The notes under the pieces were generated by a model that had not been told where the DNA came from, made no database searches, and saw nothing but the letters and a program-made list of their open reading frames with translations. A stretch of DNA of 60,290 bases, filler included, from Dugesia japonica (lineage: Eukaryota): assembly GCA_001938525.1 (NCBI GenBank). It is 5 parts of 5 records of this genome, joined end to end, with 100 filler letters (N's around TTAATTAATTAA, not from the genome) between each part and the next. Parts side by side here need not be neighbours in the genome. Positions count along the whole stretch, not along the records: positions 21,590 to 31,663 come from MQRL01615725.1; 4 more parts are not named here. One strand, given 5' to 3'. Below are positions 12,617 to 49,400 of the stretch, one piece after another (positions within the stretch are counted from its first letter, which is position 1; each line of letters opens with the position of its first letter). The position numbers were made by a program, and so were the translations under genes.

Positions 12617-12934
12617 TTTAAAGGTTTGATAAACTTAATACAGCTGATGCTGTTGGTAGTAATGTTGTTATAAATTCAATATCTTGTTCATACAAAACCT
12701 TCTTCATTAATTTTTTATTCTTAGTATTTACAATAGTTAATAATGTCTATTTATGTTTTATCTATGTCTTTGTTCTCTCTTCGCTTAAAATTACATCACC
12801 ACGAACAGTATTTATAATAATCTCGAGCAAATCATCTATAACAAATGATGGAAATGATAGCAAAATTTTTATTCTCAATATAGTTGTTGATTTTATAAAT
12901 GCTTTAAAAATGAAAGACTTCTTTCTAAATTCAT
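12617..12934 (-). pseudogene. Polinton conserved small ORF (QxGGF family), decayed
   Basis: LLSFPSFVIDDLLEIIINTVRGDVIL...KNKKLMKKVLYEQDIEFITTLLP, paralogous to 28618-28935 and 38285-38520. Confidence 0.7.
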
Positions 12935-13924
12935 TTGTATTTAAAAAGAAAAAATAAAATTGTTTATATTATATTCAGTGTCTATTGTTTAATATTCCTC
13001 AAAGAAATCACTTGCTTTTTATATTTTTAAAATTATTTTTTAGTTATTTATTAGATTTGCCTGATGTGCCCTTATTTATCTACATTTAGCTATATTTATC
13101 TATGTTTACCTTATTTAGCTATATTTATCTATATTTACCTTATTTAGCTATATTGTCTCTATTTTCTATTGTGTCTTAGTAAATATTTTAACTTCATATT
13201 TTTATAGACCTTACTCACTTATCTTTAAAATGTGTCATATATTGATAAAAGACAATAAGACTGAGTGAGACCTAGTATGATATGCTTTTTATTTAAAATA
13301 ATATTATTATTTCAGTATGTTTTCATCATCTGTTTAGCCGTCTGCTTCTTTGCTTGCTCCTTGGCTTCCTGCTTGCTCAAAGGTTTTATGGGTTTCTTTT
13401 TGTTTTAAATACATTATTTTCAGAAATATTGTTAAAGAATAATAGTTCAACATAGACAATACTGATCTTCTCATTAGAAATATTAGTTTCAATAGATAAA
13501 GTTATAGTTTTATCAGTAAAGCATTGGGTTTGTCATGAAAATACTGGATCTTTAGAGAATTTATCATGGAAAAAATGGTTTTATCATAAAAATATAGGTT
13601 AAATGGAATACAGAAATTTTATCATGAATATATTGGTCTTAAGAAGAAAATGTGGGTTTTATAATGAAACAATTGGTTTTATCGTTGAATATAAGACCAT
13701 TAAATTAGATTTTTCATAACACTACATTAGGATGTAATGATATTTTTAACATTTTGACCAATACTGTGGCTAGAAACTAATTTTTTTTCAAATATTTCTC
13801 ATTTAAATTAGGTTTCGCTTCAGTAAGTTTCTTTGCTTTTAGTCAAAAAAATTGATAAGTAAGGACAAGAGTGAGAATGATAAAATTTTTTAATACTCGT
13901 GAGTTTTAATCTGAGATTTTGTAG

Positions 13925-21589: not shown

Positions 21590-22089
21590 AAAGAAAAACA
21601 ACCCACGATAACTCATATTTTGTGCGCGTTTGCAACTACCCTTGTGGTGAAAACCATCCATCCAAAGTCATAAGTCCTTTAGACAATATATAGACCAAAT
21701 ATTTGTCCGACAAGAAATAAATCTTCAAAATCAAGATCTCCAGCTACTCCTCCTCGTTTTTAAAGGCTTTTACACACACACACACAAAACCACACACAAA
21801 CACAACTTGACCTACTTTTTAAAAAGCACCTTAACAACCCAAACACAAAGAAAATTTAAAATTTGAAAATACACTCACTGAAATTCAGGGTAGAAAAAAA
21901 ACTAATCATATCAAAAAAAAATTTGATATGATCAAAACTTTTTTGATCCCAAAAATCTTAGAAAAAAAATCGATCACAAAAATCAATATTAAAAAACGCA
22001 GCTTAAGCGTAATGTATTTCCGAGCCCCCCGGGGGAAGGGGGACTCAATAACTGCTTAAAAATATTTTTGCCCGAATTTTGGCTAGAAG

Positions 22090-23390
22090 TATAGAAGAAA
22101 TAAAATCATTACGGAAACGGACAGGACATTATGCCATGCTGGATTTCAGAAAAAGTACGATTTTATGAAACAAAAATATTATATGGAAATCTTTAAAGAA
22201 TTTGTGAAGAAAATTATTCAGAATATGTCATGAAAAAAAAGTTTATACAATGAAAACGAAAAAGGAATGCCTAAAATGATCATCTAATGAACAATTTAAA
22301 TTTATTTACATAGATTTTTGCGGACCATTTAAATTGACAAACACAGGGAAAAAGTATATATTTGCAATTATTGATCAGTATAGCAAATATATTTTTACTA
22401 AAAGCAGTAAAATATCATTATGATAAAACTTTAATCAAGATTCTAAGTGAATTTTATAATTACAATTATTGTGAGAATAATTGTTGGACTTAACCATTGA
22501 TCGCATTTGAGATTTCATTAAAATAAGAAAAAGCTTCGATCAAAATAAAATTTGAACCTTTTTACAAATAAATTTTATTTTGATCGAAGCTTTTTCTTAT
22601 TTTAATGAAATTCTAAGTGACTGTTGGTTATTGAAGATTGGTTCACAAAGATCGATTCATGTTGACCATGGAAGATGTTTTTTATTATCGAATTTTAAAG
22701 ATTTAGCAAAGAAATTTAATTTTAAAATAGAATATTCTAGTCTATAACACCATCAAGCAAATGGTCAAATTGAACGGCAATTTCAAACGATTAGAGATTG
22801 AATATATTGCTGTGTGGAAAATAAATTATTCAAAAATTGGGAAGAATGTTTATCTCAAATAGAATTTACTATGAATTCTACAATTCCTAAAATTACTAAA
22901 ATAAGTCCTGTAGAAATGATTTTGGAAAAAGGCTAAGTATAGATAAATTTGAAAGCTGGGATAAATTTCAAAACAATGAGGATATATCGAATCAAATGCA
23001 CAATAATACAGAAAGGAGTTTTAAAATTGGTGACAAAGTTTGGAGTAAAATTGATGTTAGAAATAAACAAGAAAAACGATATGATGGTCCATACACCATA
23101 ATTGATAAGCTACACAATAGCAGCTAAAAAATTAAGAAAATTGATGGTACCGAAATTTATCGAATTATTGAATGGCTTATGCCATATCGGACAGGGGAAA
23201 TGTGAGTAGGATATATTTCTGATAATTAAATATTGATTTGACCCGTATGTATGTTGCGATTGATGTGACCTGTATGAATATTGTTAATTATATAATATAT
23301 TTTTCGAATCATTGCATCAATTATATTCCCCATATTTACAGTTAGTGTGTAATTGACACTTTTTATTATAAAAAAATTTTTTAATTTGTA
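22090..23390 (+). mobile_element. Ty3/Gypsy integrase, polypurine tract and start of 3' LTR, decayed
   Basis: IYIDFCGPF, YIFAIIDQYSKY, IHVDHG, HHQANGQIERQF, YDGPYTI; PPT ACAGGGGAAA at 23191-23200 followed by TG. Confidence 0.82.
22451..22609. mobile_element. Penelope pseudo-LTR-derived hairpin insertion with 11-bp target-site duplication
   Basis: ATTCTAAGTGA repeated at 22440-22450 and 22610-22620; removing the insert restores integrase reading KILSDCWLLK; internal palindrome; same family as 31596-31663, 32665-32856 and 33150-33300. Confidence 0.75.
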
Positions 23391-23394
23391 TTTA

Positions 23395-24335
23395 GTTCTT
23401 GATACTAACATAATACATTGGAGATTACTTCGGTTGTATTTACAAGTTGGTGTTGAAGTGACTAAAATTCATAGGGCTGTAAAATTTGACCAAGACTATA
23501 TCTTTAAGACATATGTAAATGAAATCTCTGCATTAAGATCTGAAAGCAAAAATGAGTTAGATAAAAATTATTATAAACTACTCAATAATATTCTTTATGG
23601 TAAGACTGTTAAAAATCTTAAAAAGAGGACAAATCTCCGTCTCTGTAACTCTGATAAAAAGTTAGTGACGTATACATCCAAACCAAGTTTTAGGAAAACA
23701 TTTAAAATTGATAAGGATCTGATTGCTGTTNNNNNNNNNNNNNNNNNNNNNNNNNNNNNNNNNNNNAGTTATATTGGACAATCTGTACTTGATTTATCTA
23801 AGCTTAGGATGTATCAGCTTCAGTATATAGATTTACAAAAATAGCTTCTTTTTAGACGTTAAAGATATTAAATTAGAGAAATTATTATACTTAATGGTTC
23901 AAGATAATCTTTTTGAAACATCAAATTATGCTAAAAATTATACACGTTTTAATAATGACTTGAATTCTGTTGTAGAGAAATTTAAAGACGAGTCTAAAGG
24001 CATAAGGTATAAGGAATGGATTTTTATGAGACCAAAATGTTACAGTCTTCTAAGCGAAAAACCTCTATGATGGCTAAGGGTGTAACATTAAAAGGTACTA
24101 ACATAAATCATCAGTCATACCTTGATTGTAATAATAATAATAAAAGGTCTCAGTAAATCAATTTAGAATTTTGACAAAAGACCATACAATAAATAGTTCA
24201 AATAATTCAAAAATAGCATTAACAAACACAGGCCATAAACAAGTATGGTTAAAACAGAATTAAAGTTTACCATACGGACATTGTGATATACCACCTTGTA
24301 TGGAAGACGAATCAAAATCAAATCAGACATTGTAA
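23395..24335 (+). pseudogene. polB: Polinton protein-primed family B DNA polymerase, C-terminal half
   Basis: YYKLLNNILYGKT (motif B), YIGQSVLDLSKLRMY, KFKDES, FMRPKCYS, AKGV, LPYGH; stops, frameshifts and loss of the YxDTDS motif. Confidence 0.9.
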
Positions 24336-24528
24336 AAGTAAATATTTGTTATTTATTAAATTAATTTGTTCTGTATTTTTAAACAGTTCAATAATCAAAC
24401 AATAGACAGATTCATCAGATTTTTATTAAATAAATTTTTTACTTTGTAAAAATGATTTATTAAGTTATTAAGTTATTATAGTTATTATAAATTATTAAGT
24501 TTTTATAGTGTGTTTTTATTATTTCTAA

Positions 24529-25849
24529 TGATAATAGGGATCCCCAAATAAAGAACTTGTTTCTCTATAACATTTTATGTATAAAAATTGTTGATTTTAA
24601 GTTAATATATTTGTAATTAGTATAAAATGTCCAGTTGAATAGTATAAATTTCGATAGGTTTTGAAGTACTTTTGATATTTTCTAAAAATGTTATCAACTC
24701 CTGGAGCGCTAATATCCTAATTTATTTCACCAAGTATTAACTTTGGCGATTTTAGGTTAGCATATTTGAGAGAAATATTTTTTCCAAAAGATTTTATTTG
24801 TGAAAAATGATCGCCGTAAAATTCTCAACAGTTTGGTTTAAAAATCTTTGAAATCTGAGATATAGAACATCTTTTTTCAAAGTTTAGACTATTCACCTAG
24901 ACTCCCATAAAAAAGTCATTCAAAAAAGTTTAGATTTTTCATATTATTTAAACATGGACGGTTTGCCAGGATTTCTGTAAATAATTCCCATAAAAATTTT
25001 CCCACTTAAAAAGCCTAAAAATCCTTTCCAAACTAAATACACAAGAAAAATTAAACACAACACTACCATGTAAAAAGTCTAAAAAAAGTTTCCCAACTAA
25101 ATACACAGGAAAGATTAAACACCAGTTGATCCTATTACATAAAACTTCATCGATGAAATTAATTTTATGACATAAATTGTGTGTAAAAACTTTTCCCAAC
25201 TAAATACACAGGAAAAATACACAACAACTGCTTATGGAGAAGAAATTGAGTTTATAACCTGTAGAATATCAAATAGAGCCGTTGCATTAACTGACAACAT
25301 TTTTGAAGATGGGATAAACCAATAGAAAATAACAATAAAAAGTGAACTAGTCTCCAGTTGGATGTTGAACCGAATACTAGAAATTTTTGAAAAAATATGT
25401 TCTATATCTCAGATTTCAAAACGTTTTATACCAAACTCCTGAAAATTTACGGCGATCATTTCTCACAAATAAAAAATCTTTCGAAAACATTTACCTTCTC
25501 AAATATGTCAGCAAAGTGTCTTTACGATAAAGAAGTTTTCGCTGATTCTAAATACGTTAACCTAAATCGCCAAAGTTAATACTTGATTAAATAAATAAAG
25601 TTTTGTCGTGAAAAAATCTCAAAATTCAGAGTTTAGTGCTCAGACTTATGCGCGTAGATAACAGCTATCGACTCAACTTTGGTATCATTTTCCTCAGGAT
25701 GAAAAAGTCACTGTTCAAATTTAAAATATCGTCTCAGGAAAAATGCTTTTAGGTAAAAACTTTATACCAATCACAAATATATTAACCTAAAATCCAAACT
25801 TTATACATAAAAAGTTATAGAGAAAAAACGAGTACTTTATCTATTATAA
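24529..25849. mobile_element. Foldback/MITE-like element with long inverted arms
   Basis: About 24529-24890 is the reverse complement (with indels) of about 25378-25849; the spacer has direct repeats TTTCCCAACTAAATACACAGGAAA near 25024, 25089 and 25192; another partial copy lies at about 15810-15960. Confidence 0.75.
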
Positions 25850-25970
25850 TTCAAATTCATTTAATTTAATTTAAATAATTGAATTTTTAAATAATTTCAA
25901 CAAGAATTTTCTAGAATCAACTGTTTAAACCTATCAATGTATTTTACTAATACACACTTGTTCTAAAACC

Positions 25971-25978
25971 TATATAAA
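25971..25978 (+). promoter_or_regulatory. TATA box of Polinton ORF
   Basis: TATATAAA 33 bp before ATG 26012, conserved in the second copy (37994-38001). Confidence 0.55.
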
Positions 25979-26011
25979 GTGAATCTTGAATTCATTATTC
26001 ATTATTTTAAA

Positions 26012-26365
26012 ATGAAGATAACTGAAACTCTTACCACGGAAAATTCTTCTACACTAGTATTCGAGTGTGAAAACTCAAGAAATTACTTGAAACATGAGAG
26101 GTTTTTCTTTAAGAGAACAATCAATTAATATTGTGTTTACGACTTATACAAATATGAAATCAGTGACAATGATCAAAAGACTCTTAATGAACTATTTGTA
26201 AGAATCAATGAACGCATGAAAATTGAAGATGCAACTTTATTAAATCTAAAGAAAGTAATGTTCAAGAAAGTAAATTAAAGATTGCAGTTGAAATTATTGG
26301 ATACAAGAAATTCGAAGACATAGTAAAACCAATATGAAAAATTACATCAACTCAAAGGATTGAAT
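26012..26365 (+). pseudogene. Polinton accessory ORF of unknown function, decayed
   Basis: MKITETLTTENSSTLVFECENSRNYLKHERFFFKRTIN*Y...IAVEIIGYKKFEDIVKPI; the N-terminus is duplicated at about 38035-38150 next to a TIR. Confidence 0.6.
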
Positions 26366-26459
26366 TAAAAATTATTTAATAAATATTAGTATAAATAAAC
26401 GACTTATCTTATTAATTTCTACTTAATTAATTTTATTAATTTTATAAATCAAAAAAAGT

Positions 26460-27256
26460 TTAAAACAGTAAATTTTCTTTTTAATTCAATCCCATATTAC
26501 TCGATGTTCCATTGATTGTTCTGTATGACATTTGGCAACTGAAATTATAATATTAAAATAGATTATTAAAGCAACAAAAATAATTAAAGTATTTGGATCT
26601 CTTTCCATTTTGTGTTCATGTTGCTGTCTTAATGCAATTGATAATGACTTCAGTTTTATATTAATTTGAGCTTGATTTATTGATTATGGAATTGAGTAAC
26701 TTAAATCATCATTGTATTATTTGATTAATGATTCTTTTGCGTTCTTATAATACTCATTTGTAACCGTTGACAAATCGAGAATATAACATTTAACCTAATT
26801 ATCCATTAGAAATTTCATATTTTCCAATGAATCTGGATTATATTTCAGTTTATCTATTAATTCTATTCTTCTGAGTATTACAAAACTATCGAAAAATTGA
26901 ATTTGAATAAGAGCTTGTAGACCGCTTTGTAATGTTTCTTCTAATTTATGATAATAAAGTATAATTTCATTGTTTGATATTTCCTCCATTGCATTGATAA
27001 ATGGGTCAAAAGAAAATGAATTTGCCAGATTATTGGCAACATCAACTTTACATTGGTTGAGATAATCTTCATAATTCAACGATAAACAACCTTTAGTCTC
27101 TGAAATAATTTTTGTAATAAAAGTTCTTCCATGCCATTTTATGAAAGATATCATGAATTCATAATCATTATCATCTTCAATAACAACATCTTGATTAAAT
27201 AGTTCTATTTCTTTCAACATTTCTTTTTGTTTTTCTGACAGAATTACATCATCCAT
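26460..27256 (-). pseudogene. Polinton ORF of about 265 aa, predicted mostly helical, unknown function
   Basis: ORF 26795-27286 (likely start MDD at 27256) continues in the same frame through four stops to about 26460. Confidence 0.6.
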
Positions 27257-27259
27257 TTT

Positions 27260-27742
27260 TGAAAAGTGTACAATGCTTACAATCACTTAATTTTAAAACG
27301 GTATTTAAATTATTAATTAAATTAATTAATTNNNNNNNNNNNNNNNNNNNNNNNNNNNNNNNNNNNNNNNNNNNNNNNNNNNNNNNNNNNNNNNNNNNNN
27401 NNNNNNNNNNNNNNNNNNNNNNTTTTGAAATTCTTAATCCTGGAAATATTTCTGGTTCATATACACATTTGATTACTTTGGATAATTCATATAAATGAAT
27501 CATAGTTCCCAAATCATGGACAAATGTCAGTGATTGTAGTTGAATATTCTGGATATATTACTTTAAATCCTTTGGTCTTATTAGTTTCTTCAACCCATGA
27601 TTCTACAACTTCCTGATTGAAAGAAAACAAGGGTATACTTATCTGCTTTTTCTACTACTTGAGTAGGTTTTTCACTCGGAAATTTCATTTTTCTGGTAAC
27701 TTCTTAATCAAAGTTTCCTCTGTAATTAATATTTGCAATCAT
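27260..27742 (-). pseudogene. TATA-binding protein (TBP)-like gene within the Polinton
   Basis: Repeat 1 MIANINYRG...KYTLVFFQSGSCRIMG resembles TBP TALIFSSGKMVCTG. Repeat 2 IQLQSLTFVHDLGTMIHLYELSKVIKCVYEPEIFPGLRISK resembles IQNMVGSCDVKFPIRLEGL...YEPELFPGLIYR. Intronless, with stops, one frameshift and an N gap over the C-terminal part. Confidence 0.75.
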
Positions 27743-27832
27743 TATTTATGAATAATTCATTTTCAAAGTGGTATTTATACCTGTATAAACAATATTAATT
27801 CAATTGATACGTTTAAACAAGCATAAATTATA
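27743..27832. promoter_or_regulatory. Putative bidirectional promoter with back-to-back TATA boxes
   Basis: TATAAA on the minus strand at 27774-27779 and on the plus strand at 27784-27789, between divergent ATGs at 27742 (-) and 27833 (+). Confidence 0.5.
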
Positions 27833-28370
27833 ATGGAATTAAGAAATGATGCTTTATATCAAATTTTTGGACCTAGTGGTAGTGTTAAAACGTTGTTTGT
27901 ATGTAAATTATTGAAATCCAACTTATTAAAATCAAAGTTCAATAAAATATATTGGCATAGAGATGCAGATGAGGAGCATGGAATGACTCAATCAGCATTT
28001 TGTTATTTAAAACTGACCATAATTAATGGATTTAATGACAATTGAAGCAAGAGATTGAAAACAGGTGATGTCATTGTTGTTTATGATTTGTATCAAGAAG
28101 CTAATAAAGAAAGGAATTTTAATACTTTATTCACAAAAATATCAAGACATTGTGGTGTTACTGTATTCAATACACAAAATCTATTCCATCAAGGTGACGA
28201 TCATTAAAACCGTAATTTAAATGTTCAATATTTGGTTATATTTGAAACTCCAAGAGACCAAACTGTTGCTGAATTTCTAGCAAGACAAGCGTATCCAAAT
28301 AATCAACAATTTATATTGAATTCATTTAAAGATGCAACAGTAGTGCCTCATGGATATATTTTTCTGGATA
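27833..28370 (+). pseudogene. A32-like genome packaging ATPase (Polinton)
   Basis: Walker A GPSGSVKT, Walker B-like VIVVYDL, LFTKISRH, TQNLF, NLNVQYLVIFETPRD, HGYIFLD; stops and a frameshift. Confidence 0.88.
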
Positions 28371-28617
28371 TATTTTATCAAATCGATAAAGAATGCAATA
28401 AAAAAGTCAATAAAGAGAACAATAAAGAAGTCAATAAAGAAGTCGATGAAGAGACAATCAAGAATGCATTCAAAAAATGTGAACAAGGATCAAACAATGA
28501 ATGTGAAAAAGAAAAAACTAAAGAAAAAGTCAAAGAAGAATGAAAAAATAAAGATTTAATCCACTGGTAAATGGTTTAAGCTATAAACAATCTAATCATG
28601 TGTTAATAATTAATATT

Positions 28618-28935
28618 ATGGCATTTTAACGAAGACCTCCCTTATTTAAAATTATTTTTAAAGGCTCCACAAGAGTCTACAATGACAATGTTACAGTCAT
28701 TTCCAAAGTTTGTTATTGATGATTGATTAGAAATAGTTGTAAATATTGTTCGAGGAAATGTATTTCTCAACAACGATAAAAAACTTATTTTACAACATCA
28801 TAAAAAGCCGTTCCTTTCAATTGTTAAAACTAAGAAGAAAAAATGGGAAAAATAATCTATAAACAAAAGGGTGGATTCATTGCTGCATTATTACNAATAG
28901 CATTAGCAGCATTAGGATTAACAAATTTATTATAA
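28618..28935 (+). pseudogene. Polinton conserved small ORF with QxGGF motif
   Basis: FPKFVIDD*LEIVVNIVRGNVFL...HKK...IYKQKGGFIAALLxIALAALGL. Confidence 0.75.
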
Positions 28936-28938
28936 ACA

Positions 28939-29347
28939 ATAGTTAATTTAGAGTCATTATCACGAATTTATTTGACATTTATCTCAAACTGTTGTATTGG
29001 AAGCAATATAAACAGACAAAAAAAGTCCAGCAGGATTCAAATAAGTGGAAAAGTTATGGAAACGACAATAAGCTCAAAAGGCGAGAGAAAACAGTGGTTA
29101 TCGAACCAGTTAGCGTACAGTCTCAACAAGCCAATTTTGAAAAGATTCCCAACAAGACCGTATAAAACCTATGGAATTGATGACTTAAGACAAATGGATT
29201 TGATGTAAATGATTCCATATTCAATAATTTATAAAAGGTACAAGTATATTTTAACATGTATCGATGTTTTCAGTAAATTTGCAAGAGCTATACCTATAAA
29301 ATCAAAATAATCTATCGAAATGGAAACTGCAATCAAGATAATGTTTA
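28939..29347 (+). pseudogene. Polinton retroviral-like (rve) integrase, N-terminal part
   Basis: KQWLSNQLAYSLNKP...RQMDLM*M...YKYILTCIDVFSKFARAIPIKSK; truncated by an internal deletion. Confidence 0.88.
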
Positions 29348-29349
29348 AG

Positions 29350-29410
29350 AATTTAATTATATTCAGCTCTGGCGCTAAACCTCATTTAACATTACACTTT
29401 AGGAAAATAA
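29350..29410 (+). pseudogene. Minor capsid protein (penton) C-terminal remnant
   Basis: NLIIFSSGAKPHLTLHFRK matches the typical Polinton penton C-terminus (...LHFRK) and sits at the expected position. Confidence 0.6.
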
Positions 29411-29605
29411 ATGTTTAATCCTGATATAATATCATTATATAGCACTAGTCTAGCTAGTGGAGAATTACCATACTTTGTAAGAAAACAGTATGGATCTGGA
29501 TGGTTGCAAACAATTGGTCGATTTGCTTAACCTATTCTTAAACATAGTGGTGCAATTGACATGAAAACAGCACAAGATGTAATAAATAATAATGCAAATA
29601 TTTGA
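29411..29605 (+). pseudogene. Polinton amphipathic-helix ORF (cupiennin-like / pVI analogue)
   Basis: LPYFVRKQYGSGWLQTIGRFA*PILK...KTAQDV; QxGxG followed by an amphipathic helix, immediately upstream of MCP. Confidence 0.7.
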
Positions 29606-29608
29606 CTA

Positions 29609-30820
29609 ATGATTTGTGGGAAAACAGAATTGTGCATTTTTGATCGTCCATCTCCTCAAGAGGTTATTAAATATGGAGTATTTGAAGATGTGTTTCTAAT
29701 TAATAATATTTCTGAAAGTACAAATGATGGATCACTAACTGAATATTTGGATTTGAATGATACTATTTTGTATGTAAAAGTGAAGGTAGTAGATAAGAAT
29801 GGTAAATAATTGGAAGCAAAAGCCGATGTAATACTTGCGAACTTCATATTGCATAGTCTATTCAAGGATGTAATTCTTCAATTAAATAATATTAAAGTTG
29901 AAGGTGGAAATGAAACNTATGTACCTAAAGCATTGGTTGAGACTACTTTGAATTATAATTGAGATACAAAGGATGTTTATCTTAACGCCATGGGATATGG
30001 AAATGATTATTTTAGACAATCAAGCATTAGATCATCAAAGCCGTGGTCTCTGAATAAACCTCTACGTTTAGATGTTATTTCTCAACCAAAATATCTTATT
30101 CCAGGTGTCAATGCTCACATTCAATTGAAAAGATCAAAGTCAAAAATGTGTCTAGAATCCAAACTTGATGAATCAAAATATAAATTATTGGATGCAAAAT
30201 TATTGATTAGAAGAGTTCGAGTGGATTCATCAGTACTAACAGCTCATCAAATTGGATTAACCAAACAAAANNNNNNNNNNNNNNNNNNNNNNNNNNNNNN
30301 NNNNNNNNNNNNNNNNNNNNNNNNNNNNNGTAAAGACAGTTCATAATTTTATAAGGAGCAAATCTTTGGAGATCGTAGATTACCAACTTTTATTTTGGTT
30401 ACATTTCAAGACGAAGAACGATATAAAAGTAGTTATCAAATACAAAGTTCACTTTTCGGTAATTTCAATGTTAAATCTTTGACATTGTCTAAGAATGCGG
30501 ATTTCAGAGACTTACACGCAAGATTTTAAAAATAATGATTATAGTACATCATATATGCAATCGATAGTTGGAAATATGGGATATCTAAACAAGAATATGA
30601 ATTGTGGAATAACACTAGAAGATTTAAAAATCAAATATCCATTTTTCACTTTTGTCCTTCTCCAGACTTTGATATAAATCAGAGTCAATTACCGATGTAG
30701 TGTAACCTTAAGTTGAACATCAAATTCGATTCTNCATTAGTGGCACCAGCACATATAATAATTTACGGGATATTTGAAAACGAGATTCAAATTACTGCCA
30801 ATAGACAAATATTGCTTTGA
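29609..30820 (+). pseudogene. Polinton major capsid protein (double jelly-roll)
   Basis: KTELCIFD, YLDLNDTILYVKVKV, NFILHSLFKDV, LDVISQPKYLIPGV, LLIRRVRV, RLPTFILV, YPFFTF, IIIYGIFENEIQITANRQI; several stops and frameshifts. Confidence 0.9.
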
Positions 30821-30910
30821 TCAATCAGCTTTGGTTTAAACAATCTCATTGGTATAAAAAATTTAAGATAATGAAGTAAGTTTTGATAATACAAATAATT
30901 TATTTATTTA

Positions 30911-31075
30911 ATTAGTTCAATGCAGATCGATACAATCGGAAAAAATGGTCAAAATCATATTGGTTAGGAGTATTTTCATTAGACAAGATTCCATATATTC
31001 CAGTCAATAGAGCCCTAGTAGTCAACACACAGAGCTCAAACTTCGCAGGTGAACATTGGTTATCTCAACTATCGT
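30911..31075 (+). pseudogene. Adenain-like cysteine protease, N-terminal part
   Basis: WLGVFSLDKIP...LVVNTQSSNFAGEHWLS includes the catalytic His; truncated. Confidence 0.82.
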
Positions 31076-31663
31076 GTTTATCCAAGTCTATTATTTACAA
31101 TAAAATACAGTACCAGAAATTACTTTCTACGAATTAAAGTCCACTTTGCTTACTATGATTACGAAAACAATATAGCGGATGAAGAAATATTCTGGAAAAG
31201 TATCAAATATGCTGAAAAAATCAAAATGGTTGATGGAAGGTTTGTATTGAATAAATGTATTAAATAAACAACGTGCTACTTATTTAATTTGTAATTCTTA
31301 CTGTGTAAGTTTTATGATGAATATTTTTATTGTTGAGTTTTATTGTAATTTTTATGGTAAATCAAATTTTTAATGTAAATTTAAGTTTTTATTGCAAAGT
31401 TTTAGTCTATTGAATTCTTTAATTAATTAAAATAATTTAATTTTAATTAAGTAAAATTATTTAGAAATAAATCTTTGGTGACGAAATAAAAATTTAAATA
31501 ATATATGAGCCTAGTAAGTATAAATTATTTAAATATTAATTAAATTATTATTATCAAGAAACGATACGAAAAATGTTTTTGTTTTATCGTTTCAATTTTA
31601 TAATTACAATTATTGTGAGAATAATTGTTGGACTTAACCATTGATCGCATTTGAGATTTCATT

Positions 31664-33793: not shown

Positions 33794-34024
33794 AAGAATG
33801 AAAACCACTCCGAAATAATCAATAAAAGTTATTATTATTCAAAAAAGTTAATTTTTAATTAATCAAAATTAATAATAATAATTTTTAAATTTTTAATTTA
33901 TTGAATACATTAACTAAAAATCTATTAAGATTCCTAATTCATAACACTATAATCATAATTTTTAAATTTTTATTATCAATTGATATTTTTTTAAGAAACT
34001 AGATAGATACAAATGTAAACTAAC

Positions 34025-34263
34025 CCATCAATGAGCGGTTTAGCTATGGTATTGAAAATCTCTTCTTGTTTTGATAAGATATTGAATACATAATCGTAAG
34101 TAAATGCTTTGTCTTTACCAATATAAATCTGAGGTTCATTAGGAGTGACGCTGGCACATATTTGATTCATTTGCATTCGTTCTCTTGAATTTTGCGGACG
34201 AATTCTAACAGCTACTTTTACGCTTGCATCGGATGATTCATTACTTTCACTACCAACTGTCAT
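34025..34263 (-). CDS. KIF21: Kinesin-4 family motor KIF21, first coding exon
   Basis: SVKVAVRIRPQ...ICASVTPNEPQIYIGKDKAFTYDYVF...KPLIDG closely matches the KIF21A/B N-terminus; GTTAGT donor at 34024; probable 5' UTR intron at 34294-34436; later exons not seen. Confidence 0.9.
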
Positions 34264-34699
34264 TTTGGGAAATTTATATTTCCAATTTAAAAGCTAAGAA
34301 TAAAATGAATCAAAAATAATTTTAACTTATTTATTAGACAATTAAATTTATTTAAATAGAAAATTATTTTATCAATTTTTTTTACTTAAACAGATAAGAA
34401 AATAATATGACGGTTGCTTAATATCAAAAAGCTTACCAAATAATTAATGCTAAACTACTAATTTTAATGAAATTAATTAACATTTATTCCATTTGAGCAT
34501 AATTAAATTAGAAATTAAAATAATCATTGGCTTATAGTTTATTTGATATTAATTCAAACAATCAACAAATGATTATTATCATTTATCATATTTTCATTTA
34601 AAACCAAATATAAAATACTCATTAATTATTGATTTAAAACGTTATTTTTATACTGAAACTATAAAAAACAATTTTTTAAAAATAAATGATAAGTGAATT

Positions 34700-37495: not shown

Positions 37496-38526
37496 TATTG
37501 TAAAGTTGGTAGATATGAGTCTTCTTGGACTTACCCGCCCAGGGGGAATAATTTTCTAATTTTTAATTTAATTTTATATCTTTACCAATATAATATCTAG
37601 AAAGCACTCTGTGACACTTTCAAATTTTATATGATTTTTAAAATTTTTAAATTAAATCTCAGTTAAGAAGCCGGTGAGCATTCTAGTACATTTTTTAATT
37701 TCAATTTATTTTTAAAATTTTAAAATAAAATTTTTAAAATTTAAACCCAGAGAGCTGAAATCTACATACTCTGAGACACATTTTTTAAATTTTAAATTTT
37801 TATTTATATCTAGTAAAAAAACTGGACAGCACTATGATACAATCAATTTAAAACAATATTAAATATAAATAGAATAAAGTTAATTGAATTTATTTTCAAT
37901 GAATTAATTGTTTAAATTTCAAATAAAATGTGTTGGAATCATTTATTTTACTATATCAATAGCATTTATTAATACACACTTGTTTTTAAAACCTATATAA
38001 ACAGAAAATTCAATTCATTATTCATTATTTCAACTGAAAATAATAGAAACTCTTACCTATGAAAATGCATCTAAACTAATATTCAAGTGTGAAAAACCAA
38101 GAAATTACTAAAAGTATAATATGGTTTTCTTTAGGAGAACAATTAATTATTCTTTTCAAGTAATATTTGTGAACAAAGGATCATCAAAGATTGTGAATAA
38201 TAAGAAGAAAAACCAAAGAAGAATGCAAAGATAAAGACTTAATCAATCGGTAGATGGTTCAAGCTCTAAGCAATATAACAATATATGACAAAGTCTTCCT
38301 TATTTACAAGTATTCCTCAAGTCACCACAAGAGTCTACAATTAAAATGTTACTGTCATTTTCAAAGTTTGTTATTGATGATTTATTAGGAATTATTGTAA
38401 ATATTGTTCGAGAAAATGTAATTCTCAACCAAGATAAAAAGCTTATTTCACAACTTCATAAGAATAAGAAGTTAATGAGAAAAACAATCTATAAAAACAT
38501 TAAGATTACGAACTTTATTATAAACA

Positions 38527-38840
38527 ATGGATAATTTAGAGTCATTATCACGAATTTAGCTTAAATTTATCTTAAATTGTTGTAATTGCAACAATATGAA
38601 CAGATACAAAAAATCCAGCAGAGTTCAAATGATTCGAAAAGTTACGGAAAGCAACAAAGCAATTTAAAAAGCGAGACAAAAAAGTGGTTATCGAACCAGT
38701 TAGTATACAGTCTAAACAAGTCAATGTTGAAAAGATTCTCAACAAAATTGTATAAAACATATGGGATTGATGATGGGATTGGATTTGATGGAAATGATTC
38801 TTTTTTTAAGAATATATAAAGGTTAGAAGTATATTTTAAA
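38527..38840 (+). pseudogene. Polinton integrase N-terminal remnant
   Basis: KKWLSNQLVYSLNKSMLKRFSTKLYKTYGIDD, homologous to 28939-29347. Confidence 0.8.
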
Positions 38841-38859
38841 ATATATATATTTAAAAGCG

Positions 38860-38998
38860 TAAGACTTTTATGATTTTTCATTAAAAAGTTCCAGACTTTG
38901 AAAATTTTTTAAAGAAAAGTTCCAGGCTTTTATGTTTTTATGAAGAAAAGTTCCATGCTTTGAGATTTTATGAAGAAAAGTTCCAGACTTTTATGATT
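38860..38998 (+). repeat. Tandem repeat of about 29 bp inside Polinton copy 2
   Basis: Four to five AAGAAAAGTTCCAGACTTTTATGATTTTTATG-like units. Confidence 0.8.
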
Positions 38999-39208
38999 AC
39001 CATACTTTGTAGGAAAACAGTATGGATCAGAATAGTTACAAACAATTGGTTGATTTGCTTTACCCATTCTTTAACGAATTTGTGCAATTGGCATGAAAAT
39101 AATAAAGCAAAAAGTTTACTATCACTCAAAACAACTGTATTAAATGAATTCAACGACTTTATGTATTCAGATGAACTTTCAAAAAAGATGTAAAATCATA
39201 TTTGACCA

Positions 39209-41190
39209 ATGATTTCTGGAAAAACTGAATTGTGCATTTTTGATCATCCATCCCTTCAAGGTGCTATTGAATATAAAGTATTTGAAGATGTGTTTCTAAT
39301 GAATAATATTTCTGAAAGTACAAATGATGTAGAGTTTTTTATAAATGGATTTCAGACTAAATGTTTGGATTTGAATGATACTCTGTTCAAGTAAAAGTTG
39401 TTGACAAAAATGGAAAGGACTTGGAAGAAAAGTCTAATGTGATACCTCTTAATTTGGTGTTGCATACTCTATATAAAGATGTGATTCTTCTTTTTCGAAC
39501 TTTGCTGATGATAGAATGGAAGTAGATTTTAACTTCTGGAATTGATATGCTTTCATTTATGCCATCATCGAGAAGATCAGTGCTGTCCTCATCATCAGAA
39601 CCATCACTATTATCATCTTCCTCACTGCAATAATTATCATCAAATTTATTTTTCTCTTTCGAACTACTGCTTAAAATTTGAACTGTTTTGGCCAGTTTTT
39701 CATACAATACTTCCTGAACAGCCAAATGAATTGCATGTAAATAGCAAATTTAATGTTCAGTAGGAATCAATTTTCCAAACTTACTATGTTCCATCAGTAA
39801 CAGAGCAAATGATACTACCTGTGGTGTTTAACCCAAATTCTTCCACTTTTTCAGTCTCAACTGCTTTACTGCAGGAAGAGACCCAGATATTCTCCTGAGC
39901 CCAAGATTCCAGTGTTTATTTTTTCGATGAAAATTGAAATTGATGAATCTTCGATATTTTTAAGGAAGTGTATTCATTTAGTGTAACTGAAAAACGTTGG
40001 CCACTTGACACTATAGAAATGAAATTGTCTTTAAGTTTATTCTTCACAAAACAAGCAAACGTTTTTACTAATTGAATAGCTTGCTTTTAGTTTTTTGGAA
40101 AATCATAACCTTTTCCAGACATTGCTTATCAAATAAATGAACTTTTAATTATTGCAAGGAAACTAACTCCGTCAAATGATGTCAGTTATGAACCTCTTCC
40201 ACTGATTCTTTTTAAAAAAAAGGTTAGATTTTTGGAATCCTTGCTACTCCAGAAATTTTTGTTGTTTCTTTTGCCTTTTTTTGTTTGATTTTTCATGTGT
40301 GTTTTGTAAGTGATATCACATTCCAGCTGAAGAACCTGTAAAGTGGATTTTTGTACCACATAGAGTGCAAGTAATATTGCCTCCCCTTGAATCTTTTATA
40401 AAATATTTCCAAATCTCTGCCATTTTAAAATTAATCAATATAATTTTATTAATGCTTGAAATCAATAAAAAAAATATTTTTTTCCAAATTTTCCATCATA
40501 ATTTATTAATGAAATGGTAAAAATATTTTTTCCGATTTACTGGTAAATAATCAGTAAAAGCTCAATCCTAGACATAATGCAATGTGTTATGAAAAAGATG
40601 ATTTTAGAAAAACAATCATTAAAACATCAAAACGATGGTCTTTTTGTGGTCCTTTACATTTAGATTTTATGAGTCAACCAAAATAACTTATTCCAGCTGT
40701 AAGTGATTGTATTCGATTGAAAATATCAAACCCCAGAATAAGTTAGGAATCACAAATTGATGAATAAAAATATAAATTATTGGATCCATAATTAATGGTT
40801 AGAAAAGTTTGATTAGAACAGCTCATTAAATTGGATTAACCAAACATAATGCTATTTATCCTATATGAACCAATGAAATTGTATCATATGCAATTAGTAA
40901 AGACAGTTCATCGTTTTATAAGGAACAAATCTTTGGCGACCGTAGATTGCCAAGCTTTATTCTAGTTAGATTTCAAGATGAAGAAAGATATAAAAGAAGC
41001 TACAAAATACGAAGCTCACTTTTCGATAATGTTAATGTTAAATCAATACCTTTATCGAAAATGGTGAATACAGAGAAACCTATACTCAATACTTTAGAAA
41101 TGATGATTATAGTACATCATATATGCAATCTATTGTTAGAAACAAAAATATGAATTATTGAATAACACTTGAAGAGTTTAAGACCAAATA
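39209..41190 (+). pseudogene. Polinton major capsid protein copy 2, split by a hAT insertion
   Basis: MISGKTELCIFDHP...LHTLYKDVIL at 39209-39490; resumes at about 40571 with CGPLHLDFMSQPK, NAIYP, IFGDRRLPSFILV. Confidence 0.85.
39491..40570 (-). mobile_element. 3'-truncated hAT transposon with BED finger
   Basis: TAGGATTGAG terminus at 40570; MAEIWKYF...CTLC...HLQNTH BED finger from 40422; RFSVTLNEYTS, VTDG, CYLHAIHLAV (CxxH), acidic insert, IISKVRK. Confidence 0.85.
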
Positions 41191-44100
41191 TATACTAGTT
41201 GGTTCATCTACATCTATCCAGGGTTTAAATTTTAAAATTTTAATTTTCAAAAAATTTAAAATAAATTTAAATTAAAACTATTGTAGAAGACTATTGTCGA
41301 AAATTTGAACTTTTTTTACAAATAAATTTTGTTTTGTTTTGATCGAAACCTTATCTTATTTTAATGAAATCTTAAATTAAAACATGTCCCAGAGGGCTTA
41401 CCAGCTTTTTTACTGAGATTTAATTGAAAAAATTTAAAAATAAAATAAAAATAAAAAGTGTCCCAGTGTACTCATCAGGTTTTTTATTGGTAAAAATTTA
41501 AAATTAAATTAAAAATGAAAAATAATTTCCACTAGGGAGTATGTCCCAGAGAGCTCACATCTACCTACTATATATTACTGTATATATACCTACTGTATAT
41601 TACCAAACTGAATATATTTAGTTGACATTTCTGATGACTATTTATTAATTAAGTTCAAATATAAGTTATTTTAAAACACGTGCGTAACATCAATAAATTT
41701 AAACTCAAGTATTATAAAGTATTGTAAAAAAAGTACAATTAAATATTTATTGAAAATAAAATTTTAGCACTGGCAAAATATTTATGTATATTATGAGTTC
41801 TTACAAATATATCAATTTATTTTTATCAAGATAGAAAAACCAAAATGTTAACAGCTATTTTACGTTAGCTAATTTCATTTTTATTCTCTTTCCTCTCTTC
41901 CCAATAACTTTAATCTCTCAATTTTTTTACACTATTTTTTGATTTTTTTCTTATTTCTAATTCCCAAATTGGTCAAACCAAAAGTTAAAATGTACTTTTT
42001 CTATTCTGCTTCAGCACTCTGTATATATTTTATGTACTCATGATAAAACCAATTTAATGATTTTGTTTTGTTGTTTCTTCTAAAATTGTGTTTAATATGT
42101 ATATCTATAATACCTAATTTATAATTTAATCATTTTTTTATTATAAAAAAACTAGAAATAAGTAAAAAAAACCATTATTCGGTTTATTAGTTAAATTTAA
42201 AGTCTCGCAAGTCTCCATAAATTGTTTATTGATTATTGCAAGTCTTTTCTTAAAAATAAAAATATGAAATAACAATTCACAAATTTCAAACAAATAATCT
42301 GAGAAATTTTAATAAAATATTTTTCAAAAATATTGGTTTTTTAAAATCAAAAAAAATATTTTTAAATCTCATTTTAGAAAAAAAATTTTTAAAATTTTAT
42401 AATTTAACACCATGTAAAATTTGAACTTTAATTTAAAATACCTTTGTTTTACATGTATATTTATTTATTTTTCAACCTTATAATTTTTAAAATTTTCAAG
42501 ATAACCAATCTTAATATTAAATATAAAAATTAAAAAATCTCAGAAATCCGAAATTCATGAATCGATACTCACACGGTTAATCGAAAATTGATTTTAAAAA
42601 ATTCTACGATTAACTAGTTAATCGATAATCGGTTTGGATAGTCTAATTAGGTTAGGATCTGTGTAAGAAAATATCTTTCAAATAATTATTTCCCAATTTA
42701 TCTTGTTAACTATCAATTAGTACAATTAAACTTGATAGTTAAAAATGGCAAATTTACGAGTGCAACATGTTTATTTACTATCACACACGGATTCATAAAT
42801 CAGTACTGTTAATGAATCTTTAAAAATTCATAACTAAAATATCACAGAAAAATTTTTCCAATTCATTCCAAACTACTAACAATCATGATAAAATTCTTTC
42901 AATCGCACTCTAATTTTATGTTTCATTTTACAGCCGAAGTTCTATTTCGTCTTTATAAAAGTTTTATATTAACTCAATCTAATTAAAATTCTCTAGAATT
43001 CACGTATAACATCATTTCTAAATATTTTGTAGTATTTTTAACTATACAAGTTTTTATTATTTTATTATTTAAAATTGGAATGTGTAAAATTCATTTAAGA
43101 ATTAGATTCATATTAAATCACAAGTGAATTATCTCTTGAAAGAGCTGAATATCACAATTAAAATAGCTTCTAAACCCATGAATGCATGAAACCTAAAATA
43201 TCTTAATCGAGGTACTCAAGTTGATTTAAGCAACCCAATATTACCTTGCAGATGTTTATATCTTTCTTCAAATTTAGTTCAGACGAAACCAATAATAAAC
43301 TCGCCAATCATTTAGAGTGCTTTCTCAAGAGTTTAAATAACCGATCATTTAAATATGTTGGTGTTTATAAGAACAGATACAAATTTATAAAATGTTCTGT
43401 CTCCAAATCTCGTTTTAGTTTAATTGACTAGATCCCAAATATATCATTAGCGATCCAACATCGTTAATCGAGTTCTGTCAATAACCAAAGGGTGGTTAAG
43501 TGAATCAATGAAGATCGCTCAATAGATAAACTTTTAACCTTTGTTGCAATTGGATTAAAAACTTGAATTGTAAATTTATTCTCTAATTTATCCTTTTGAA
43601 TTGTCTTTAGATTCTTTTCCAGCTAAATCTTCAAAATTTTCTAATAACAATATCAAATTCCTTTTGATTATTATTTCAATTTTCCCTTTAATTTTCGATT
43701 AATGATATTCTATTTTTAGCAATTAAGTCAATAAGATTTCTTAATAGTTTTATCATATCTTACATCGTAAACTAATTTCACTATTCAGTTAATTTTATTT
43801 TATAATTTAATTTATGTAACTTGGTGTTTGAGAAAATTATATAAACTTGATCTTGTTATTTTCTGTAAGATTATTTGCATCTCATTAATTATCAAGTTGT
43901 TTTACGCTGGTTTGAATTCATTACCAATGATTAATTCATAGTATCACAAATTAAAAATAAATAAGTGAAGAACAAAATATTTTTGTTAATTTTACAATGT
44001 TAACCAGAATAATTTTTGTTTATTGTGAAAATTACAATTTGTATAATTATTCACTTTTTTAAAATTTTTAACCATTGATCTTTTAATGAAAAAATAAAAT

Positions 44101-46486: not shown

Positions 46487-49400
46487 CAATTCCAATCATT
46501 GATGTGATGTCAATCTTAATGTTTTCAGACATAGGGTTTATTGTTACTGTGTTTATCTCTTCTCCGTTTGCATATTTGATAGCTAGTAAACAGACATCCC
46601 ATAATTTATAGATGGTTCTTAATAAGAAATATAAAGTTATATAAGTTTATTGAATTATATATAATGTGTATAACATTAATATTAAAATGATTTCAACATA
46701 AATTAATCATTTTACAAAATAAATTAATCTTTTTTCGAAATATGAAGGCATTTACTACTCGGGTATCATAAAAGAACCATACGAATAAAATTTTCATTGG
46801 TAGGCCTTATTTTTTTATTTAATTTAAATATTAAATTAAATAAATAAATCATAAAAGTAACTAAAATATGAAACAAATTTTTATTTTGTAAAATGATTAA
46901 TTTATGTTGAAATCGTTGTATTATCAAAATAAAGCTGCATTTTGTAAAATAAATTTTAAAATAAATATATAAAAACTAAATTTCATTAAATCTATGTTTT
47001 TGCAATATACATATTATATATTTACAGTGCTACGTCTAAACACGGCAATCCGTGAAAATCATCAGAAAATTCAACACTGTAAAGTCGATTACGCAGACCT
47101 TCTTCATATTCCTTTCTCCAAAGGTTTTGAGTTTTCTACATTTATTCTAAATTTTTTAATATTAATTAAAAAATGTAACCATGGGCTCTGTAAATGTCAT
47201 TAGATTTGTAATTAGTGTTGCCATTCCAGGTGCAAGACAATTATAAGCCATTAATCCCAATCTGAGTTCATCCAAACAAACAATAACATCAGTATTATAT
47301 TTATTCCACCTTGGAAACATTTTTAATAAAATCTAAAATTAAAATTGAGATAAATTTTATTTTCATCTTTTAATATTTCTAAAATCAATTCCTGNCGAAG
47401 ACAAAGTCGAAATATAGAGTTATTATCAAAAACAAAAAAACATACTATACTATAATATAAAACATATAAGTGTAATATAATGAAATGTTTAATTTCAATT
47501 AGTTATTTAAAATGAATTTATCAAGTATTTTAAATCCCTATGTAATATTAATATTAGAAATTTAATCTATTATGTAATCAATACACACAGCAAACGTGTC
47601 ATTTGTCATATTACATAATCATACTCATAACATTTAGTATTACAATACACAATTACCATGTTATATAATAACTATTATTATCATTATTAATCTTTAATCT
47701 TAAATTTTGTTTTTCATCTAAAGAGTTGTTATACTTATTATTAAAAACAAAAGACTAAATAGTTCTTAACTTATTATTAACATATATATAATCAATAAAA
47801 ACAAAATAACAAATATGTAACAACATTTATTTGAGCATATAAATACAAAATCACAAATAATCATCATGTCGTCTTCTTCTTTTTATTCTTCATTTTCTTC
47901 TTGCTCTTTACAATCAAAGGTCATTAAACATAGCAAATATATTTATTATTTAATTATTGATTTTATAATGACCATAAGCCATAATAGTATTTCTTTCACT
48001 CCAAAAGCGCTTATCATGAAGGCATGACAATACGTGTTTGTTACTTTTTATTGTGTAAACCTGGTGATTTATCGCCCGAAAGCTAGTCTGCATAACTTTG
48101 TTTTGTTGCTGTTCTTTGTCTTCATCTATATTGTATGCATTTAAATGGTTTTGATGATTGATATCTGTTTGTTTTAAACTGATTCATTTTGCTTTCATTA
48201 TCATACTAGAATCTTCTTTCTTCAAACTACAACATTTTGGCCTTAGAAATACCCATTCAGTATACCTTTCACCTACTCATTCGTCTTTAAACAATCCAAT
48301 TTTACTGGCCATATTTCTGGAATTGAGTGGATGATCTTTTAGATGATTGCTTGTATCCAGTAGACCATCAAATTTCATTTGGGATAAGAGTTGGTTTTTA
48401 TCTACCCGGGTACACGATAAGAAAAGACTATCTGTATCTTCAGCAATTATATCAATTTCGAAACCAAATTTATTTCGGTATTTTTCAAGTTCTTCATATT
48501 GAAGTCTATACATTCGCAATTTACTCAAATCTAGAACCACGTGGCTAATATAACTCGGTTTATCGAGACAAATAGTATCTTCCTCTTATAGTACAGCCTT
48601 GAATCCGTCTGCAATATCTATTGTTTGCTTAAATGTAACTTTACTGGTGTAAGTTTCAAAGTTCTTCTCAGTCTTACATAGACGGAGATCCATACACTTG
48701 TTTAAATTCTCAACAAAATTACCCTATACCGCATTATTTAATAGTTTGTAGAAATCCTTTTCAAATTTGCACTTTAAATTTGCTCTTCTCACTGAATTTG
48801 CATTAAACTAATTGGCAAATATTTCCGTTTGTTTGAATTGAATTATTCTATATACTGCAGTTACATGAACCTTAAGCATTATATATAATTCTAACAATCG
48901 TCAATATACGATATAATGTCGTTTTGGTTCATATGTCATCAAGAACTTCTTAACTTTCTATCCTGGTTGAAATTTGTGTTCTGGAGCCAAAGGTANNNNN
49001 NNNNNNNNNNNNNNATGTTCGTTCGGTATTTCGAGATTAATTTTAAGCAGGTATCCGATTTCATTATTGTTATTGATGAACATCTTTTGGTAAGTTTCTT
49101 CTATCTGATCTTCTGATATGAATTCTAAATCTCTATATGGTAAAGGCTCTGTTAAGGCCCAACTATATAGGTTTTTAATATCAATGTAAAGTAGTGAGGT
49201 ATTCCCATCTGCCTGGACATAATGTTTGTTCACAATATTCATTCCTCCACGAATTCCTAACTCAAATAGACGATAGATTTCCGTATCTTGGAGTAATTCT
49301 ATTGACCTATCAATCAATTTGAGAGCACTTGACCAGCTCAATCCTGGTAATGAAACAAATCGTAGTGGCTCCAATCCATGATTTTTAAGTGTGTTTTTAC

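Follow-up and report, generated by a model that had tools for sequence, protein, structure and literature searches.

A TBP-like gene of Polinton/adintovirus elements and a variant TATA box upstream of their virion and packaging genes

In the stretch of Dugesia japonica DNA analysed here (the window, 60,290 nucleotides long, filler included), the minus strand holds a dead copy of a short gene that is conserved in Polintons/adintoviruses and has a product resembling the TATA-binding protein (TBP). The gene belongs to this family of elements and is under purifying selection in them. The sequences compared suggest to us that the intact protein probably acts as the late-gene factor of the element itself, through the box YATAAACR (TATAAACA/CATAAACA). 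We also lean, a little less firmly, to the broader proposal that one wide Polinton/adintovirus clade runs a two-stage programme with a single protein of 150 residues, in which host TBP would give rise to the viral TBP and this in turn would serve all virion genes via YATAAACR, TFIIB and Pol II.

The decayed copy and its neighbours in the window

The TBP-like gene and the ATPase beside it are placed in the part of the window that corresponds to MQRL01615725.1 (positions 21,590 to 31,663). The gene starts with the ATG at 27742 of the minus strand, and its reading continues in two frames: the first piece, TLVFFQSGSCRIMG, ends at 27593, where a frameshift occurs, and is followed in the other frame by IQLQSLTFVHDL...YEPEIFPGL. 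These are the minus-strand peptides that were quoted in an earlier note on this DNA, and they are borne out when read in this way. The end of the gene, which had been put at 27260, has to be moved, since the natural end judged from the intact relative P0002 lies near 27294. Besides the frameshift near 27593 the copy has in-frame stops at 27706 and 27560; it is intronless and broken, and cannot make the protein. Three further apparent stops were discarded, as they arise where the alignment runs on in the wrong frame at the frameshift. The second repeat has about 30 unread codons (N), and for this reason the second FxxG motif of the window copy was not visible in the earlier reading. The two pieces are nevertheless close to P0002, with 41/50 and 50/58 identical residues (82-86%), and match the profile of the family with E values of 2e-20 and 3e-19.

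The genes encoding the protein-primed DNA polymerase (pPolB), the rve integrase, the packaging ATPase, the protease and the major capsid protein (MCP) are all found in the window as decayed pieces (Table 1). The order ATPase-c4-integrase-(penton)-c21-MCP-protease is that of the intact loci L004, L039, L049 and L102, as far as each of them extends, and the Polinton hallmark genes are intact, in varying sets, in L004, L053, L054, L060 and L102. The family assignment of the ATPase comes from a Pox_A32 match on L004, and that of the major capsid protein from a weak Capsid_N match on L053. In-frame stops are also present in the ATPase, MCP, PolB and integrase pieces, in agreement with the earlier remark that the TBP-like gene is decayed to a similar degree as the viral genes. 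The minor capsid gene, which is located by c21 in intact relatives and was found in 12 of 80 related loci, gave no match in the window copy. For the gene directly downstream of the TBP-like gene five relatives were found; no Pfam family was matched, and an Atlas search returned no usable match.

The TBP-like gene and the packaging ATPase are arranged head-to-head. The spacer up to the ATPase start codon (27833) measures 90 bp, as had been stated before, and contains both boxes, the variant one directed toward the ATPase and a canonical TATA toward the TBP-like gene. The window is AT-rich, and a kinesin-like exon in it marks the host as a eukaryote; the resemblance of the elements to adintoviruses would point to an animal. 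A search of its 17-45 kb region for terminal inverted repeats or a target duplication gave no convincing pair, the longest candidate around the element being mostly N.

Table 1. Features of the Polinton remnant that contains the TBP-like gene (positions in the window)
Feature	Position	Strand	Remarks
Protein-primed PolB, C-terminal fragment	23410..24290	+	Pfam DNA_pol_B_2, E 3.8e-7
Decayed gene without assigned function, directly downstream of the TBP-like gene	26585..27256	-	79% to P0190 over 222 residues
Decayed short Polinton TBP-like gene	27294..27742	-	Minus-strand reading; alignment to intact relative P0002
Canonical TATA box TATAAATA	27772..27779	-	37 nt upstream of the TBP-like start codon; putative host-TBP promoter
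Variant box TATAAACA	27784..27791	+	49 nt upstream of the ATPase start codon; putative late promoter element
A32/FtsK-like packaging ATPase, decayed (aligned part)	27833..28369	+	62.6% to L009 ATPase, E 6e-70
Variant box at 28582 and conserved small gene c4, next after the ATPase in these elements	28582..28825	+	
Variant boxes at 28931 and 29007 and rve integrase fragment	28931..29358	+	
Conserved small gene c21, upstream of the major capsid gene	29414..29602	+	Alignment to intact relatives
Decayed major capsid protein gene	29606..30814	+	41% to L004, E 1e-95
Adenain-type protease gene fragment	30940..31098	+	Peptidase_C5 on relative L039

Relatives of the gene, predicted fold and DNA-facing residues

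When residues 52-107 of one frame were used as the query, one of two candidate proteins was returned. This protein, P0002, is natural and intact, has 153 aa and passes the Pfam TBP family (PF00352) with 45.7 bits against a curated cut-off of 22.9, a score that the broken C-terminal piece of the window copy does not reach by itself (16.7 bits, E 0.0066). The TBP-like proteins of L004, L039, L053, L102 and L103 also pass the curated score. Moreover, P0002 matches 35 distinct PDB sequences, all of them TBP or TBP fusions. A word search with P0002 yielded 43 relatives among 71 candidates, and a profile built from 35 relatives found 64 representatives of a 50% library at E<=1e-30, or 795 at E<=1e-10, where ordinary TBPs are included.

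Metagenomes yielded 431 candidates; 154 of them encode a relative, of which the best 80 were analysed. A Polinton hallmark gene is present in 38 of the best 80 loci (20 of the 23 among those of at least 4 kb), and 69 of the best 80 have either a hallmark or an accessory family that is seen beside hallmarks elsewhere. An Atlas search with a 45-aa piece gave unnamed clusters only. No member of the family was found in IMG/VR (0/29 candidates), where L001 is a conventional giant-virus-type TBP only, and ATPase, MCP or single PolB queries had no matches there.

The window's own organism contains further copies. Three of its runs in Logan gave 6,457-6,952 contigs per run at 80% identity or above on a 2.1-kb stretch, which show that many divergent copies are present and give no copy number. 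Some of these contigs, differing in about 15% of their letters (about 85% identity), span the TBP gene, the spacer and the ATPase, which means that the genes are linked in other copies as well. Logan contigs of a second organism also have the TBP-like family. Instead of the small lineage that had been supposed, it is a wide clade of elements that carries the gene, and the intact relatives that were sought next to ATPase or capsid genes do exist among Polinton genes. The head-to-head layout with the ATPase recurs in L002 and L047 with one ORF in between, and the position of the TBP-like gene within the element varies between loci.

The dN/dS values of the TBP-like gene range from 0.10 to 0.24 with a median of 0.17 (15 disjoint pairs from 73 ORFs), which indicates purifying selection; the value for the ATPase is 0.08 (3 pairs). 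TBP distances track those of the ATPase (rho 0.64, 19 loci) and of the integrase (rho 0.74, 11 loci), and two of the seven supported TBP splits disagree with the ATPase tree. In a quick, unrooted tree of 88 of the 233 rows, with no TRF2 sequence in the set, 74 family rows stand on one side of a branch with support 100 and 14 eukaryotic, archaeal and giant-virus-type TBPs on the other. As its root is not fixed, this tree does not determine the donor of the gene.

The structure of P0002 was predicted by AlphaFold2 with 35 rows (pLDDT 94.2, pTM 0.81). Foldseek searches of the PDB gave 44 matches at E<=0.001, and all listed ones are TBP, with a best E of 3e-9, TM by query of 0.61-0.75 and identities of 20-26%; the next fold appears at E 0.012. 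Among viral proteins, matches were obtained with TBPs of large DNA viruses and, at weak scores, with the herpesvirus mimics (U58, E 7e-4; BcRF1, E 4e-3). The intact product is predicted to keep the saddle of two repeats known from cellular TBP, and the TBP fold proposed in the earlier note is in this sense recovered. That note had recognised both half-repeats. This is correct for the second, which is complete in the P0002 model, and only partly so for the first: in the short subgroup, to which the window copy belongs, the strands are kept while the stirrup loop and most of both helices are reduced, leaving a five-residue first helix, no second helix and no stirrup phenylalanine. A longer subgroup (L054, L060) keeps both first-repeat helices. 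In cellular TBP the missing first-repeat helix binds TFIIA and Brf1, and the short subgroup may therefore use a recruitment that differs from the textbook route. With about 145-180 aa, no N-terminal tail and the low identities given above, the family is also, as had been noticed, shorter and much more divergent than cellular TBP.

Residues were counted in 219 family rows, 36 of which come from hallmark-bearing loci, and compared with 14 conventional TBPs. Yeast numbers in the second repeat follow from residues 93-128, which match 183-219 of 1rm1; the remaining TBP positions, placed on alignment columns, bear what we take to be their yeast numbers. In this alignment the DNA-facing residues of the family are uniformly changed. 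The substitutions are V122R (211/213 rows), T124M (215/216), N159S/T (216/217), V161T/S (216/217), L205N (217/218) and I194R (172/219), together with V71N (160/194) and V203C (164/218), and no Phe is found in the family at the stirrup position F99. Retained from cellular TBP are N69, Q158, both FxxGK turns, F116 (212/212), F207 (217/217), F190 and P191, as well as the stirrup glutamates E186 (206/219) and E188 (216/219), which in TBP contact TFIIB (PMC10005294). The face is therefore not a canonical one, with three of the four intercalating phenylalanines kept and six DNA-face positions changed. I194, V203 and L205 are positions that alter specificity in yeast TBPm3 (PMC1636458). Judged by these counts, the face looks like one of changed specificity under strong constraint rather than one in decay.

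The variant box, its proposed reader and viral parallels

When 6-mers were counted without bias in 247 dereplicated upstream regions of 100 nt, ATAAAC occurred in 126 of them, against 17.6 expected from dinucleotide shuffles. The box has the consensus (T/C)ATAAAC(A/G), i.e. YATAAACR. It is one-directional (106 sense vs 4 antisense among 266) and peaks 30-59 nt upstream of the ATG, with about 40 nt being typical and 21 of 71 boxes falling outside 30-60 nt. Most of the genes for the ATPase (22/24), MCP (8/9), PLA2X (10/13), c4 (13/16), integrase (10/15) and penton (6/11) are preceded by it, as are two of the five protease genes, and it is rare elsewhere (zinc-finger 0/10, c10 0/5, c12 1/8). When the 34 TBP-bearing loci are pooled, the box stands before 65 of 83 virion or packaging genes and on the opposite strand before none. 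It is absent before the TBP-like gene itself (0/50). Canonical TATA-like words were found upstream of 28 of these 50 genes, such words being frequent by chance in AT-rich sequence (19.8/56 expected).

TBP-like genes without a canonical TATA in L003, L011, L017, L021, L046, L051, L052 and L058 share TTGTTT(T/A)A about 40-60 nt upstream and TCATAATT just before the ATG, which could represent a second promoter class.

For comparison, PolB, integrase or ATPase served to retrieve 24 control loci irrespective of TBP, with L096 repeating L082. Two of them have a gene of the family (E 1e-50), and in these two the box precedes 8 of 9 virion or packaging genes; the remaining control loci showed no TBP-like ORF even at relaxed cut-offs. 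Among the TBP-less controls, whose contigs are partial and more distant, the box was found before 0 of 41 virion or packaging genes (19 informative loci); when all genes are counted it precedes 3 of 230, and another 3 have it on the other strand. The nearest TBP-less loci, L104 and L105, have it before 0 of 18 genes. The TBP-bearing loci form one group on the ATPase tree and all TBP-less loci fall outside it, so that gene and box provide one evolutionary contrast and not many.

In four RNA runs labelled as the same species, 68-2,304 reads fall on 4.9 kb; they lie on both strands and most are less than 90% alike. Read ends did not accumulate behind the box and gave no position for a start site there, and these runs are uninformative on viral expression.

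We hypothesize that host TBP would transcribe the viral TBP gene early, from the canonical TATA, and that the viral TBP would then bind the variant box upstream of the virion and packaging genes and recruit host TFIIB and Pol II, leading to the particle proteins. The N-terminal repeat of TBP contacts the 3' half of the box (PMC1636458), and the C at position 7 would accordingly face the most altered half of the viral protein. A dedicated TBP that redirects host Pol II to late virion promoters had already been suggested in the earlier note, and the presence of the box before virion genes only in TBP-bearing elements lends this circumstantial support. Counting against such a late-gene factor is the fact that host TBP can use TATAAAC weakly: TATAAACG keeps 27% activity in plant protoplasts (PMC10005294, Table 4). 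One of the PDB matches of Foldseek, 1qn3, is wild-type TBP on the C(-25) TATA variant. Patikoglou et al. are said to have found in 1999 that TBP binds TATAAAC through a Hoogsteen pair. EBV BcRF1 binds TATA and TATT alike in vitro (PMC4893493), and a viral TBP therefore need not carry the specificity alone.

The earlier note had also considered a decoy, which seems to us rather unlikely. The viral protein would then bind host TFIIB or TBP regulators, or block promoters as a competitor, and host TBP would read the box as a weak TATA. The retained stirrup glutamates and the tolerance of host TBP for TATAAAC would suit this, as would the loss of one phenylalanine, which is shared with TRF2, a protein that does not bind TATA (PMC10005294). 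However, a decoy would have no need of near-invariant new polar residues on the DNA face. Nor would it account for the lack of the box in TBP-less elements and before the TBP gene.

We give a comparably small chance to the box being read by another factor, either a host Forkhead-type protein or another conserved protein of the element, for instance that of c4 or c2, with the TBP-like protein being a cofactor or acting elsewhere. ATAAACA resembles a Forkhead site, and several conserved genes without assigned function travel with the clade. Moreover, six proteins are required for late transcription in herpesviruses (PMC4893493). The box is nevertheless one-directional, and GTAAACA is rare (7 sense vs 93 for ATAAACA) while ATAAACG is common (27), for which reasons a TATA-like element fits better than an orientation-free enhancer site.

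A role of the box in polyadenylation or termination of the upstream gene, unrelated to the TBP-like protein, is very improbable. Of 224 occurrences, 31 are close to a gene end and have no annotated start downstream, and 69 are close to both; 64, however, precede a start without an annotated gene end nearby, and the spacer that holds the window box is divergent and has no gene upstream of the box on the same strand. Furthermore, ATAAAC directly follows a T or C in 126 of 142 cases, and there is no enrichment of AATAAA (41 sense vs 56 antisense). Finally, a processed host TBP pseudogene that landed in a Polinton, which the intronless and broken window copy might have suggested, is refuted by intact relatives under purifying selection amid Polinton genes, by the thousands of contigs per run, some bridging both genes, and by the well-supported branch apart from cellular TBPs.

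The late-gene factor proposed here recalls the TBP mimics of beta/gamma-herpesviruses (EBV BcRF1, KSHV ORF24, HCMV UL87), which serve a TATT late box (PMC4893493). Both cases concern a nuclear virus without its own RNA polymerase that has a TBP-like protein and a variant TATA before structural genes (PMC4893493). The herpesvirus mimics, however, are domains of proteins of 550-1000 aa, work in a six-protein complex and read TATT, whereas the Polinton protein is stand-alone, has 150 aa and goes with the box YATAAACR. Among the neighbour genes scanned there is no Pfam family of an ORF24/UL87-type large protein or of the five partner genes. The Polinton TBP and its box can at most be likened to the herpesvirus late system, of which they are not a member, and the resemblance would be one of convergence.

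Viral TBP-fold proteins are also present in large DNA viruses (NCLDV, nimaviruses, mirusviruses). Unlike the Polinton family, L001 and the four conventional-looking divergent TBPs fall together with the cellular ones. NCLDVs, in addition, bring their own RNA polymerase.

The earlier note knew of no description of TBP in Polintons. This stands in so far as we found no title or abstract opening on the TBP-like family or the box in the Polinton/Maverick/adintovirus literature searched, a body from which subscription journals are mostly missing. It has to be qualified by the label 'TBP' printed in the legend of Fig. 5 of Starrett et al. 2021 for MELD viruses with adintovirus-like PolB (PMC8502044; bioRxiv 10.1101/697771). 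The legend thus concerns an element that is broadly comparable and has a gene with similarity to TATA-binding proteins, but the label is only an abbreviation, in a section on non-animal datasets, and does not by itself establish sameness with the Polinton family. In the portions of that publication available to us, the text on the animal adintovirus maps (Supplementary Fig. S2) has no TBP label, the supplement part mentions neither TBP nor TATA, and no promoter motif is described (PMC8502044).

The gene and its box bear on how animal Polintons/adintoviruses express their capsid genes, and on whether this happens without help. A TBP dedicated to a box of its own would be a concrete switch, consisting of one small protein and an 8-bp site, and the protein would be a natural altered-specificity TBP, changed at the positions of yeast TBPm3. 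It would also be a third independent case of viruses re-inventing late transcription around the TBP fold, and the box may be useful as an annotation marker for virion genes in these elements. If the proposal is true, protein and box would make up the smallest orthogonal TBP-promoter pair known, and would be evidence that these 'transposons' pass through a late phase of particle making which they control themselves and for which no helper virus is needed.

Other genes of the elements and of the window

Several accessory genes were identified in TBP-bearing elements. These include genes encoding a leucine-rich-repeat protein, KilA-N, RING fingers and C2H2 fingers (L025 1918-3327, L054 7145-8002, L049 1710-2168 and L053 13315-13893). 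In c3, a neighbour of the TBP-like gene (L004 1788-2135, L013, L021, L023), the region upstream resembles a short GT-AG intron (CAAGTA...TTTAG), and this gene may be spliced.

Four of the 46 element loci scanned contain a tRNA gene: L050 (3449-3523, Ile), L054 (5518-5589, Cys), L060 (10601-10684, Asp) and L104 (9486-9561, Met). The one in L050 is placed between the TBP-like gene and the ATPase. L102-L105 are Polinton contigs within four bacterial metagenome-assembled genomes, probably as a result of binning contamination; L102 is a near-complete TBP-bearing element.

The window also holds other Polinton remains. A second, more decayed copy of the element family lies at 37877-41191 and is 72-78% identical, in pieces, to 25853-30638. 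It contains c4, integrase, c21 and capsid fragments, with variant boxes at 37996 and 38519, and has no TBP-like gene or ATPase left. Further Polinton debris consists of a longer PolB fragment at 47965-49705 (minus strand) and of a lone c4 gene at 12654-12908 (minus strand), for which a variant box is found at 12968. In window coordinates, the remnant with the TBP-like gene and the second copy are separated by a host kinesin motor exon (33994-34293, minus strand; Pfam E 7e-5).
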